Of a DNA stretch of 64,000 nt, positions 23,257 through 59,303 are shown one piece after another. This DNA is from an uncultured bacterium. GTDB taxonomy: Bacteria > Elusimicrobiota > Elusimicrobia > Elusimicrobiales > Elusimicrobiaceae. The DNA lies in contig CASEVY010000013.1 in the NCBI GenBank assembly GCA_949291515.1, positions 16,389 through 80,388 on the forward strand. The letters run 5' to 3'. Under the pieces are notes generated by a model, which made no database searches, was not told where the DNA came from, and was given only the letters and a program-made list of their open reading frames with translations. The position numbers and the translations under genes are program-made. Each line of letters opens with the position of its first letter. Position 1 is the stretch's first letter.

Positions 23257-23326
23257 ATTTTATTTTTTTACGGCTTCTCCCTCAAGCCGATTTTAGGCCC
23301 ATTCTTAACTGGGTCTTAAGTCCTAC
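23257..23326 (-). promoter_or_regulatory. Composite promoter copy E (distal box + proximal box + TTGAGG-N17-TAAAAT)
   Basis: Gene orientation: AGGACTTAAGACCC-N10-GGGCCTAAAATCGGC-TTGAGG-N17-TAAAAT. The -35 is at 23280-23285 and the -10 at 23257-23262. Confidence 0.65.
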
Positions 23327-23430
23327 GGAAAGTTTTCACGCTTGTGTTTCACATATACGTTGCGTACAAAGTTATAGACATATCCTAAAGCGTGCGTAAA
23401 ACATACAAGCCTCAAGATGAGGTTATGCAT

Positions 23431-23456
23431 TAAAAAGCCCCGGTTGCCCGGGGCTT
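23431..23456 (-). terminator. Terminator of the NifU-like/GGGtGRT operon
   Basis: Minus strand reads AGCCCCGG-gcaa-CCGGGGCT followed by TTTTT. Confidence 0.75.
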
Positions 23457-23469
23457 TAAATTTGCTTCT

Positions 23470-24468
23470 TTATTTTGAGGCTTCCTCTATCGCTACCGCT
23501 ACCGCGACGCTTGCGCCTACCATCGGGTTGTTACCCATACCGATTAGGCCCATCATCTCGACGTGCGCGGGAACGGAAGAAGAGCCCGCGAACTGCGCGT
23601 CGCCGTGCATACGGCCCATGGTATCGGTCATACCGTAGGAAGCGGGACCCGCGGCCATATTGTCGGGGTGCAGCGTCCTGCCGGTGCCGCCGCCGGAAGC
23701 TACCGAGAAGTATTTTTTGCCGTGTTCGGTCGCCCATTTCTTATAGGTGCCGGCTACGGGGTGCTGGAAGCGGGTCGGGTTGGTGGAGTTGCCGGTAATG
23801 GAAACGTCCACGTCCTCGTGCCTCATTATCGCGACGCCTTCGTTGACGTCGTCGGCGCCGTAGCATTTCACCTTGGCTTTATCGCCGTCGGAGAAAGCCT
23901 TCTCGCTCACGATATTGAGTTTGCCCGTATAGTAATCGTAAGAAGTTTCGACATACGTAAACCCGTTGATGCGGGATATAATATAAGCCGCGTCTTTGCC
24001 AAGACCGTTCAAAATAACTTTAAGCGGTTCTTTTCTTACCTTATTGGCAGTTCTGGCAATACCGATTGCGCCTTCCGCCGCGGCGAAAGATTCGTGCCCC
24101 GCCAAGAAGCAGAAGCATTTGGTATTTTCGCGCAGCAGCATAGCGGCCAAATTGCCGTGGCCAAGGCCTACTTCGCGCTGATCGGCTACGGAGCCGGGTA
24201 CGCAGAAACTCTGCAAGCCTACGCCGATTTTCTCGGCCGCTTCGGCCGCGGTTTTTACACCACTCTTTATCGCTATCGCCGCGCCTACCGTATAGGCCCA
24301 GACGGCGTTTTCAAAAGCGATGGGCTGTATCCCTTTTACTATTTTTTCAACATCTATGCCCTTGTCCTCGCAAATTTTCTTGGCTTCTTCCAAGGAGGCT
24401 ATGCCGTTCTCTTTCAAGGCGGCGTTTATTTTGTCTATTCTTCTTTCATAACCTTCAAATGTAATCAT
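23470..24468 (-). CDS. GGGtGRT-family protein (conserved, function unknown)
   Basis: Contains the eponymous motif SGGGTGRTLHPDNM. About 330 aa and paired with a NifU-like gene, as is usual for this family. Confidence 0.8.
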   Translation of the reverse strand: MITFEGYERRIDKINAALKENGIASLEEAKKICEDKGIDVEKIVKGIQPIAFENAVWAYTVGAAIAIKSGVKTAAEAAEKIGVGLQSFCVPGSVADQREVGLGHGNLAAMLLRENTKCFCFLAGHESFAAAEGAIGIARTANKVRKEPLKVILNGLGKDAAYIISRINGFTYVETSYDYYTGKLNIVSEKAFSDGDKAKVKCYGADDVNEGVAIMRHEDVDVSITGNSTNPTRFQHPVAGTYKKWATEHGKKYFSVASGGGTGRTLHPDNMAAGPASYGMTDTMGRMHGDAQFAGSSSVPAHVEMMGLIGMGNNPMVGASVAVAVAIEEASK

Positions 24469-24488
24469 AGTGTTATATTCCTCCCCGG

Positions 24489-25190
24489 TTACTCTTTGCG
24501 CGGATCTATCTTCTTGACGGCTTCGTTAAAGCGCCCGTAAGAATTGATGTTCTTCTCATAGGCGGTTTTGGGATCTTCGCCTTTCTTTATGGCGTCCATC
24601 ATCTTGCCCAAGTTGACGAATTTGTATCCGATGACTTCGTTATTCTTGTCGAGGCCGATCTCAAGGACATAGCCTTCCGCCATTTCCAAGTAGCGGGGCC
24701 CTTTGGCTTCGGTGCTGTACATCGTGCCGACTTGCGAGCGCAAGCCTTTGCCCAAATCTTCCATACCGGCGCCTATCGGCAAGCCGTCGTCGGAGAACGC
24801 GCTCTGCGTTCTGCCGTATACTATCTGGAGGAATAATTCTCTCATGGCGGTATTGATTGCGTCGCATACCAAGTCCGAATTTAAAGCTTCAAGAATGGTT
24901 TTGCCCGGCAAAATTTCCGCCGCCATCGCGGCCGAGTGCGTCATACCGGAGCAGCCCAAAGTTTCCACCAAGGCTTCCTTTATTATGCCGTTCTTTACGT
25001 TTAACGTAAGTTTGCACGCGCCCTGCTGGGGTGCGCACCAACCCACACCGTGCGTAAGACCGCTGATATCCGTTATCTGTTTGGAATTGACCCATTTTCC
25101 TTCTTCAGGGATAGGGGCCGGATTATGTTTAGCGCCTTTGCATACGCTGCACATATTTTCAACGTGAGGGGTGCATTTTTCGCAGCTCAT
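24489..25190 (-). CDS. NifU/IscU-N-like Fe-S scaffold-type protein with an N-terminal Cys cluster
   Basis: The IscU-like core GCSGMTHSAAMAAEILPGKTILEA carries a Cys-rich N-terminus (CEKC...CSVC). It sits 20 nt upstream of the GGGtGRT gene. Confidence 0.75.
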   Translation of the reverse strand: MSCEKCTPHVENMCSVCKGAKHNPAPIPEEGKWVNSKQITDISGLTHGVGWCAPQQGACKLTLNVKNGIIKEALVETLGCSGMTHSAAMAAEILPGKTILEALNSDLVCDAINTAMRELFLQIVYGRTQSAFSDDGLPIGAGMEDLGKGLRSQVGTMYSTEAKGPRYLEMAEGYVLEIGLDKNNEVIGYKFVNLGKMMDAIKKGEDPKTAYEKNINSYGRFNEAVKKIDPRKE

Positions 25191-57981: not shown

Positions 57982-58159
57982 ATTATAACTTTCCTCCAAT
58001 TGGATTTTTTATTTCATATATATGATACTATTTTTTTTGACCTTTTTAAATATCGGCACCGATGCCAAGGGCGGCTCTTTTTAACGGCGGGCGAAACTTT
58101 ATTGACATCTTTCCGTTTTAAGCCGCAGTTTTTTTCATCGCCGGATATAAAATGAACCG

Positions 58160-58189
58160 AAAAAAACCCCGGCTTATTTGCCGGGGTCT
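58160..58189 (-). terminator. Terminator of the trypsin-fold protein gene
   Basis: Minus strand reads CCCCGGC-aaataa-GCCGGGG followed by TTTTTTT. Confidence 0.75.
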
Positions 58190-58204
58190 TTTAAATTTTT
58201 ACTA

Positions 58205-59206
58205 TTATAAAGCGGTATTGCCGTTTAAGTCTTTGGTAAGTTGTATTCCCCCGCCTTTTACGCTGTCTTTTATGAGTTTCGTAAAATCTGATGAAAATAA
58301 AGCGTACTTGTTAGTCTTCGTATATCCGATTACCTGGCTGTCGCTTACCGTCTTTATGCCGACCAGTATATTCTTGTTCGAAGACGCGCGGTGGAACAGC
58401 GGCTCGCCGAAATAGCTGCGTTCGACCTTGCCGTTTACCGTTAAAAATCCGCCTTTTACAGATTTTACGGTTTTACTCCCGCTTACGGGAGAGAAGAACA
58501 CCCTCTTTAAAAAGGCATCTTCCACCTTATCCTGCGGATCCATATTGGAAAGTATTACCGTACCGTAATTTGCTTTTACTCCGAAAGTAACCTTATCGGA
58601 ACCTACCGCCCACTCCCACAATCTTACGCACACATTGTCGGCCGTTGTACCTTTTTCCTGTAAACACAAATTGCTTATCTTTATCAAAGCGGCGCCGCTT
58701 CTGTGATCGATAAAAACTTTGGATATTTTACGCGCGTCAAACTGCAACACTCTGCCGTCCAGTTCCAGTTCCACGCTAAGAGGTTTAAATTCCACCAAAG
58801 CGCCGGGGGCATCATCACCCGTATATTCCATTCTGTCCACTCTCAAGCATTTTTCGTGAGTAAGCAGGTAATCTTTGTTTATCAGAGTGCCGTAGCAATG
58901 CGCGTCGAAAAAGCCCGCACCTTCGCCCCAAAGACCGTCTTGTTTGTAATTTAAATCTATTTTATAAGGGCGGCCGTCGGCATCATAATCTTCCACAAAC
59001 AAATCTCTCTTATATGTAGTGGTAAGTTTAAAGACCATAGGTTTATAATTATATTTATAGCTCTGACCCGCTACGGCGCTTTCTATTTTGCCGCCTATCT
59101 CATTATTTAAATCCTCATTTTCCATAAAGGAAGAGAAATCGGCGCTATAAGCCAGCCCGCCGAGCCAAAATAGAAACGTAAAGATTAATAATTTCTTTAT
59201 TGACAT
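58205..59206 (-). CDS. Secreted trypsin-fold (S1-like) protein lacking the catalytic triad, driven by composite promoter C
   Basis: Signal peptide MSIKKLLIFTFLFWLGGLAYSA. The segment CYGTLINKDYLLTHEKC aligns with the S1 motif CGGSLI..WVLTAAHC but has Lys at the His position. GAALIKI stands in for DIALIKL, and YFGEPLF for GDSGGPL. Confidence 0.55.
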   Translation of the reverse strand: MSIKKLLIFTFLFWLGGLAYSADFSSFMENEDLNNEIGGKIESAVAGQSYKYNYKPMVFKLTTTYKRDLFVEDYDADGRPYKIDLNYKQDGLWGEGAGFFDAHCYGTLINKDYLLTHEKCLRVDRMEYTGDDAPGALVEFKPLSVELELDGRVLQFDARKISKVFIDHRSGAALIKISNLCLQEKGTTADNVCVRLWEWAVGSDKVTFGVKANYGTVILSNMDPQDKVEDAFLKRVFFSPVSGSKTVKSVKGGFLTVNGKVERSYFGEPLFHRASSNKNILVGIKTVSDSQVIGYTKTNKYALFSSDFTKLIKDSVKGGGIQLTKDLNGNTAL

Positions 59207-59233
59207 TATATATCTCCTTGTTAATATACCTAA

Positions 59234-59303
59234 ATTATAGTTATTCTCCCGCTCCCTTTACAAGAGAAAAAGGGCCCCCCTGACCTTAGGCCCTTAGACC
59301 TAT
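59234..59303 (-). promoter_or_regulatory. Composite promoter copy C
   Basis: Gene orientation: AGGTCTAAGGGCCT-N9-GGGGCCCTTTTTCTC-TTGTAA-N18-TATAAT. The -35 is at 59258-59263 and the -10 at 59234-59239. Confidence 0.65.

Follow-up and report, generated by a model that had tools for sequence, protein, structure and literature searches.

We describe a two-box composite promoter that occurs five times on the minus strand of a 64,000-nucleotide (nt) stretch of DNA, positions 16,389 to 80,388 of contig CASEVY010000013.1 (the window; all coordinates count from its first letter). Proteins identical to those encoded in the window are present in gut metagenome assemblies, and its source is an uncultured human-gut member of the Elusimicrobiales. 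Each site combines a sigma-70-type core promoter with two upstream copies of one palindrome, a distal box near consensus and a proximal box whose right half is degenerate. We confirm that the five similar promoters are real and specific in the window, and, judged from genome sequences, the element is confined to and widespread in the phylum Elusimicrobiota. The best explanation, to which we assign a probability of about 0.7, is that the boxes are tandem operators of a dimeric transcription factor that probably activates a sigma-70-type promoter.

The sites, designated A to E, consist of the following parts.

Site A distal box TGGGTCTAAGGACCCA, 54115-54130, minus strand, 16-bp palindrome, centre ~-66.5
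Site A proximal box TGGGGCGAAAGGCTCT, 54091-54106, minus strand, weaker copy, centre ~-42.5, last T is the first T of TTG
Site A core promoter TTGTAT-17 nt-TAAAAT, 54063-54091, minus strand
Site B distal box TAGGACTAAAGACCCA, 55307-55322, minus strand, 8 nt after the secG terminator stem (55353-55330)
Site B proximal box TGGGGCCAAAGTCTCT, 55283-55298, minus strand
Site B core promoter TTGCAG-17 nt-TAGAAT, 55255-55283, minus strand
Site C distal box TAGGTCTAAGGGCCTA, 59287-59302, minus strand
Site C proximal box, GGGGGCCCTTTTTCTCT region, 59263-59278, minus strand, centre T-rich, not A-rich
Site C core promoter TTGTAA-18 nt-TATAAT, 59234-59263, minus strand, joint best sigma-70-like match (10/12) in 53000-59500
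Site D distal box TAGGTCAAAAGACCTA, 41302-41317, minus strand, 35 bp from the divergent fmt gene (41352-42362)
Site D proximal box TAGGTCCAAGGTCCCT, 41278-41293, minus strand, best-kept proximal palindrome among the five
Site D core promoter TTGTGG-17 nt-TAAAAT, 41250-41278, minus strand
Site E distal box TAGGACTTAAGACCCA, 23310-23325, minus strand
Site E proximal box TGGGCCTAAAATCGGCT, 23285-23301, minus strand, most degenerate, one extra base ahead of TTG
Site E core promoter TTGAGG-17 nt-TAAAAT, 23257-23285, minus strand

Re-reading of the sequence placed all five sites within 1 nt of the positions given in a first-pass annotation of this DNA. Their multiple alignment has a gap-free core, and the seven distal-box bases that had been called invariant (G2, G3, C5, A8, G10, C12, and C13) are indeed so (G23, G24, C26, A29, G31, C33, and C34 in alignment numbering). 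A flanking T and A are also aligned, which lengthens the distal box to 16 bp, and the box previously described as partly palindromic is a 16-bp palindrome, TAGGNCT-AA-AGNCCTA, common to the five sites. The degenerate pattern RGGNCNNARGRCCY has five matches in the window versus 0.38 expected, and none of 100 shuffles reached five. Because this pattern was taken from the sites themselves, we added a leave-one-out test with 45-column weight matrices, each built from four sites. Each omitted site was the top non-training match in the 64-kb window, with scores ranging from 6.4 to 46.0 against a best background score of 4.7; site C, at 6.4, was barely over this background maximum. A weight-matrix scan found no sixth site in the window, and the site density is five per 64 kb.

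The distal box can alternatively be read in a 6-4-6 format, TAGGNC-N4-GNCCTA, with half-site centres 10 bp apart. The proximal box is the same 16-mer with a weaker right half and begins 24 bp downstream of the distal box (25 bp in a minority of sites), so that each promoter contains two copies of one dyad ~24 bp apart, one strong and one weak, as in tandem operators. The proximal box had been reported to abut the -35 hexamer, and its final base proved to be the first T of the -35 TTG. With the -10 hexamer at -12 to -7, the box centres, earlier estimated near -42 and -67, were recomputed as ~-42.5 and ~-66.5, which, by the predicted start site, puts the proximal box at the class II-type operator position (-41.5 to -42.5, abutting or overlapping the -35). 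The spacing between the -35 and -10 hexamers is 17 nt in sites A, B, D, and E and 18 nt in site C, and the -10 hexamers (TAAAAT, TAGAAT, and TATAAT) all fit TAnnnT. All five sites are therefore of the sigma-70 type (TTGnnn, 17 ± 1 nt, TAnnnT, upstream of a gene). The -35 hexamers agree with TTGACA at only three or four of the six positions, and for this reason a sigma-70 consensus scan of 53000-59500 picks only site C among the three sites located there.

The two-box architecture had been considered not to be a generic promoter feature, and this was borne out: the upstream regions of gap and of a gene for an outer-membrane beta-barrel protein, as well as two tRNA promoter regions, do not contain the boxes. 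The beta-barrel gene also indicates that not every exported protein has them. Site B starts 8 nt past the secG terminator stem and site A comes after the terminator of gene B, so each of these sites begins a separate transcription unit. In the gene order fba-[C]-gene C-gap-pgk-secG-[B]-gene B-[A]-gene A, sites C, B, and A break up the run. Site D is divergent from fmt (assigned by Pfam), and site E lies ~330 nt ahead of its gene. The genes downstream of the five sites are as follows.

Gene A, 53156-54022, minus strand, 288-amino-acid (aa) exported orphan protein, paralog of B
Gene B, 54281-55219, minus strand, 312-aa exported orphan protein
Gene C, 58205-59206, minus strand, 333-aa exported protein with weak trypsin-fold profile matches
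Gene D, 40435-41199, minus strand, 254-aa exported orphan protein
Gene E, 16842-22928, minus strand, 2028-aa exported giant protein

All five products have signal-peptide-like N-termini and none has a significant Pfam match, in line with their earlier description as exported proteins without known function. Proteins A and B are paralogs that share 31% identity over the C-terminal 116 residues (E = 1e-13). Homologues of protein B form only 35 clusters in a database of 5.8 billion proteins, and its AlphaFold model, which is all-alpha with a predicted local distance difference test score of 65, had no fold match in the PDB (best E = 0.74). By sequence, proteins B, C, and D had no significant match in the PDB. 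For protein C, earlier labelled a pseudo-trypsin, the trypsin-fold profile matches are only weak (E ~0.007). Family C keeps His117 and two Cys residues in CxGTLINxxYLLTHxxC, which resembles the His57 region of trypsin except that the His is displaced from the Cys. Trypsin-like exported proteins also occur as tandem paralog arrays beside box-bearing genes at loci L049, L112, L042, and L076 and in their neighbours. In a search for a C-terminal sorting domain shared among the targets, the five window proteins matched their own families only.

To survey the element beyond the window, we scanned one genome per bacterial or archaeal species (185,579 species, 596 Gb) for exact matches to the composite pattern CAAG-N8/9-GNCC-N10-TRGGNCYTWWGNCCYA. 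This pattern carries 37 bits, and ~17 chance matches are expected in the whole database under a uniform base model. All counts from the scan are lower bounds. At least 115 loci were listed, of which at least 111, from at least 78 assemblies, belong to Elusimicrobiota. Taxa were taken from database records and shared gene families, and six of the 111 loci were assigned to Elusimicrobiota by shared target families or site similarity (L034 and L059 by similarity only). The remaining four listed loci, in Kushneria, Syntrophorhabdales, an alphaproteobacterium, and a Prochloraceae cyanobacterium, look like chance matches. No match to the same pattern was found in 2.9 million viral contigs. The Elusimicrobiota loci derive from human, ruminant, horse, chicken, and termite gut and from groundwater and lake habitats, have a local GC content of 30-72%, and include the cultured species Elusimicrobium simillimum, E. 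posterum, and Parelusimicrobium proximum. The candidate regulon proposed from the window thus extends well past one genome and spans the phylum.

Across 93 non-redundant sites from many species, the boxes are not randomly scattered but associated with promoters. Several positions that were free in the pattern are conserved (T25 in 82%, R26 in 100%, Y31 in 95%, and C37 in 81% of the sites), and the -10 bases T63, A64, and T68, which were likewise not part of the pattern, are each present in ~80%, exactly 17 nt past the -35 hexamer. Positions 4-6 of the -35 hexamer (43-45) and both spacers carry no information, and nothing is conserved between the -35 and the -10 or downstream of the -10. The predicted start site is typically followed, a few tens of nt on, by an open reading frame (ORF). 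Most of the additional boxes in the locus flanks belong to composite promoters that escaped the strict pattern, from which they differ in their spacing (25 bp), in a flipped centre of the box, or in having TGG or TTT instead of TTG. Some promoters were found via the proximal box alone; although their distal boxes vary from good to hardly recognisable, they hold the same register to the -10, which ties the proximal box to the core promoter.

We also asked whether orthologous loci keep the genes without the boxes, and they do not: the orthologous promoters of all five window genes retain them. The boxes precede the B orthologue at every locus fetched, where it shares 72%, 59%, or 47% identity with protein B, and they also precede the A and C orthologues where these are present at the same loci; L012 contains extra paralogs with their own box copies. 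Orthologues of D with 65% and 48% identity are preceded by both boxes at the 24-bp offset, again divergent from fmt, and site E is conserved together with its leader in two other species. Box-bearing homologues in other genera also exist for the giant protein, for the C family, and for the A/B family. In the orthologous B and C promoters, the mean pairwise identity is 0.75-0.88 in the boxes versus 0.37-0.42 in the 9-nt spacer and 0.30-0.48 upstream. With boxes retained beside diverging spacers, the phylogenetic footprint is clear, and the element is under purifying selection. The two-box promoter divergent from fmt (window 41199-41352; L038; L129; L130) keeps its position while the driven gene differs: in both the window and L130 it encodes a 254-aa orphan, in L038 an unrelated protein of 445 aa, and in L129 a 202-aa exported protein, with the D orthologue next in line.

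Across the phylum, too, the element precedes genes for Sec-type exported proteins. Among the first ORFs downstream of the listed Elusimicrobiota sites, 92 of 110 encode signal-peptide-like N-termini, compared with 16 of 49 other genes in the window even with a generous choice of start codons (Fisher p = 5.6e-10). A lipobox-like motif is present in only two of the downstream proteins. The targets fall into ~60 unrelated families, and most have no recognisable domain; the domains detected are ankyrin repeats (9), the MBL fold (6), clostripain C11 (4), TPR (4), carboxypeptidase M14 (2), and endonuclease I (2). Therefore, the previous statement that the products are of unknown function applies to the five in the window, but secreted hydrolases and ankyrin-repeat proteins occur among the targets elsewhere.

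The main target family without a signal-peptide-like N-terminus is a protein of groundwater lineages, 1000-1200 aa in length, encoded in a conserved cluster. This protein, which starts MNFYNEDEKK... and has no Pfam match, is the commonest single target in the scan (L015, L017, L020, L021, L029, L035, L051, L068, L069, and L096, from groundwater or other non-gut sources). Its gene is always preceded by genes for two conserved ~500-aa membrane proteins, also without Pfam matches, and its promoter is conserved far past the boxes (TTGGCYGCGGCG..ATATTAGGTAAATTATAATCGGA). A 'Q-rule' of pyroglutamate N-termini has been described for Bacteroidetes; reminiscent of it, [AGS]-Q is found near the likely signal-peptidase I site in 56 of 114 exported targets (e.g. 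...AYAQ, ...FAQ, and ...VKAQ), including those of window genes B, D, and E and many of L014-L128.

The boxes are very probably operators for a conserved DNA-binding protein that acts at the promoter. In the proposed mechanism, a dimeric helix-turn-helix factor encoded outside the window would bind both operator copies, the strong distal site would help to load the weak proximal one, and the proximal dimer, placed against sigma region 4, would activate transcription. In this way, exported proteins that vary as a set, among them hydrolases, proteins with ankyrin repeats, giant surface proteins, and many orphans, may be switched on together.

Base pairing within the palindrome bears on whether a protein or a nucleic-acid structure reads it. 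Of 69 non-redundant sites, 33 have complementary bases at the variable palindrome positions 5 and 12, versus 24 expected; an A-A mismatch in the B-type box is kept across three species; and the proximal box has its A/T centre in either orientation (CTTT 10, CAAA 9, TTTT 8, and TTAA 6). In a search of Rfam 15, only two tRNAs passed in the window and the element was unmatched; around sites A, B, and E, there were only far-sub-threshold matches, mostly over adjacent terminator or intergenic sequence. A function of the palindrome as an RNA or hairpin was rejected, because complementarity is not maintained and Rfam gives no match. The palindrome fits two half-sites that would be read by a symmetric dimer rather than a selected hairpin.

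Several points weigh against tandem operators of an activator. The 24-bp spacing corresponds to 2.3 helical turns, whereas tandem activation of the CRP type is favoured by sites in phase. A weak -35 is thin evidence for dependence on an activator, because the TTG is well conserved here and the -35 hexamers of this genome's housekeeping promoters look weak as well. The centres at -42.5 and -66.5 depend on a predicted -10 and a predicted start site; the signal-peptide calls used a crude hydrophobicity rule, with gene starts from our own ORF calls; and the census is a biased lower bound, in part because the scan pattern fixed the orientation of the distal-box centre. In addition, clustering of 690 ORFs, including upstream and divergent neighbours, at the 111 loci revealed no recurrent DNA-binding family that could represent a regulator encoded near the sites. 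Finally, the same geometry could serve a repressor.

Activation is nevertheless the direction that we moderately favour over repression. If the same dimeric factor acted on the same operators as a repressor or silencer, it would occupy -74 to -35, block the alpha C-terminal domains and sigma region 4, and be released on a signal. The conservation evidence is silent on the direction of control, and the core promoter, in which a good TAnnnT lies at the ideal distance from the conserved TTG, might fire unaided. The housekeeping promoters of the window likewise have poor -35 hexamers. Repressor operators usually overlap the region from -35 to +20. In contrast, nothing is conserved here between the -35 and the -10 or downstream, and activators classically use a site that ends exactly at the -35, assisted by another one dimer-length upstream; the register is also the same in promoters found by the proximal box alone. 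Repression by these operators therefore seems unlikely, though it is the strongest competitor.

We regard as very improbable a reading in which the boxes are recognised by RNA polymerase itself, as an extended upstream element that serves a sigma factor specific to the phylum or an accessory subunit bound to the polymerase, so that the exported proteins would share a separate promoter class rather than a classical regulon. The rigid spacing (variation of at most one base) over a phylum with sites of 30-72% GC and the high density of five sites per 64 kb would suit such a class, as would the reported absence from Elusimicrobium minutum of sigma-54 and its activators, which have been proposed as a controller of the bacterial exterior (PMC3162934). 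However, TTG and TAnnnT separated by 17 nt are ordinary housekeeping elements, also present at the tRNA genes of the window, and two copies of one palindrome point to a dimer bound twice, not to sigma or the alpha C-terminal domain. The rigidity of the spacing is partly imposed by the search pattern. Nor does the element match a sigma-54 promoter, with GG and GC 10 nt apart at -24/-12 and no -10: its GG-to-TTG distance is 11 nt, not 8, and a sigma-70 -10 is present.

Repeated DNA without a dedicated binding protein, such as a mobile or duplicated promoter cassette, a repetitive extragenic palindromic (REP)-like sequence, or the repeat of an invertible promoter, is hardly credible and is largely refuted by the footprint pattern: palindromes just past terminators do resemble REP elements, and two L012 sites share a spacer as expected after tandem gene duplication, but the copies are alike in the boxes and promoter hexamers only, with unrelated spacers and flanks, orthologous positions are kept across genera and the full GC range, base pairing is not maintained, Rfam gives no match, and both repeats lie upstream of the -35 instead of flanking the promoter as inverton repeats do. 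A REP-like or miniature inverted-repeat transposable element and a mobile cassette were rejected as identities of the element on the limited extent of the similarity, and an inverton on the position of both boxes and the lack of a conserved repeat downstream of the -10.

The preferred reading, that of tandem operators for a dimeric activator, can be compared with several known systems. At the lambda PRM promoter, cI binds OR1 and OR2, 24 bp apart, at ~-66 (strong) and ~-42 (weaker); the proximal dimer touches sigma region 4, and the distal one assists through cooperative binding. The element resembles PRM in its two dyad operators 24 bp apart, with a strong distal one and a weaker proximal one near -42 by the -35. 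It differs in sequence (16-bp TAGGNCT-AA-AGNCCTA versus the unrelated 17-bp lambda operators), in having no third operator or divergent promoter, and in its presence at many chromosomal promoters throughout a phylum rather than in one phage switch.

Regulators with a GerE helix-turn-helix (LuxR/TraR and NarL/ComA) bind as dimers to 16-20-bp palindromes, and lux and tra boxes at -42.5 overlap the -35. ComA recognises a 6-4-6 palindrome, NarL sites are 7-2-7, and DegU, of the same family, controls secreted degradative enzymes. The palindrome formats and the proximal centre at -42.5 agree with such sites, whereas the half-site sequence differs and no GerE-type regulator is linked to the sites. 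Among CRP/FNR class II promoters (CRP, FNR, NtcA, and PrfA), a 14-16-bp palindrome at ~-41.5 is combined with a TAnnnT -10 and a poor -35, and PrfA and Clp of this family control secreted factors. The element is similar in the size and position of its palindrome, its TAnnnT -10, and its poor -35, but a CRP/FNR site was rejected because TAGGNC-N4-GNCCTA is not TGTGA-N6-TCACA, TTGAT-N4-ATCAA, or GTA-N8-TAC; moreover, a second site at +24 bp does not have the helical phase of the known tandem CRP arrangements. LysR promoters have a strong dyad recognition site with a T-N11-A motif near -65 and a degenerate activation site near -35, both bound by one oligomer, and the gene for the regulator usually lies divergent from the target. 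The likeness to them is loose, consisting of a strong dyad at ~-65 plus a degenerate site beside the -35, and a LysR target promoter was rejected: the even-length 16-bp palindrome has T-N14-A, not T-N11-A, and no divergent LysR gene was seen, the neighbour in the window being fmt.

The window had been said to encode no transcription factor, and Pfam and the contig annotation of nearly all genes found none. A DksA/TraR zinc-finger protein (54-764) and a lysine-rich, histone H1-like protein (47506-47790) were considered and rejected, as neither is a sequence-specific candidate. At the 111 loci, a four-member cluster of 'response regulators' was dismissed, since it consists of three receiver-only proteins and one NarL-type protein, and a full GerE-type regulator occurs near a site at only 1 of the 111 loci. 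A HisKA_3 histidine kinase downstream of match L126 was rejected as part of an autoregulated NarL-type system, because this match is the chance one in the Prochloraceae cyanobacterium. None of 24 divergent neighbours within 350 bp, which include fmt, recG-like, and aquaporin-like genes, was regulator-like when judged by eye.

A literature search, including the box sequences as text, found no description of the two-box element and no regulon or promoter motif for Elusimicrobiota. As a regulon of a transcription factor that uses tandem operators, the system is ordinary in kind; it stands out by how rigid it is, how much information it carries, and how it is conserved throughout an entire, little-studied phylum. 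More tentatively, a single phylum-conserved activator could be a master switch of the exported proteome that uses a lambda-PRM-like promoter, perhaps with at least 100 genes per genome, although we consider this less probable than the operator reading itself. The reported absence of sigma-54 from E. minutum makes a phylum-specific regulator of exported proteins attractive but speculative. If such a switch exists, it would control the cell exterior, as sigma-54 has been proposed to do in other two-membrane bacteria, and the cis-element alone would predict the secretome regulon of any Elusimicrobiota genome, including those of uncultured human-gut and groundwater lineages.

Very few members of Elusimicrobiota have been cultured, and an element of ~37 bits can be found by pattern alone. 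Co-regulated exported proteins may thus be predicted from genomes only in uncultured gut, rumen, termite, and groundwater lineages; the predicted members include orphans restricted to particular lineages, proteases and nucleases that are secreted, and ankyrin-repeat proteins with possible effects on hosts or neighbours. The box pair could serve as a probe to capture the putative phylum-conserved regulator by DNA-affinity capture or DNA affinity purification sequencing (DAP-seq), and if this regulator is an activator that answers a simple signal, the element would provide a natural inducible promoter for genetics in the phylum. As a case of regulatory evolution, the element also combines turnover of its target genes with an operator and an exact geometry that stay constant over a GC range of 30-72%.

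Site E is followed by an additional feature of its own.

Site E leader, ~320 nt, 22929-23250, minus strand, conserved and predicted to be structured, with an intrinsic-terminator-like hairpin at its end (~23000-23037)

The leader is 79% conserved in three species (the window; L050:165-495; L076:7375-7705). RNAalifold on the three sequences predicts several hairpins with 75 pairs, 11 of which show compensatory double changes, and no Rfam match was found for the leader. It also contains a 58-codon ORF (23020-23196), which may be conserved at the RNA level only. From these features, the leader is a candidate attenuator or riboswitch-like leader. More distant giant-protein homologues have the two-box promoter with a short leader instead.

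Two further proteins of the window have unusual sequences. The DksA/TraR-type zinc-finger protein (minus strand), located at the window edge, is unusually long (236 aa). The H1-like nucleoid protein (94 aa, minus strand) consists almost entirely of AKKAA/VKKPA repeats and contains an unusual Cys-rich stretch, KKTCAKKACCGKKACAKK.

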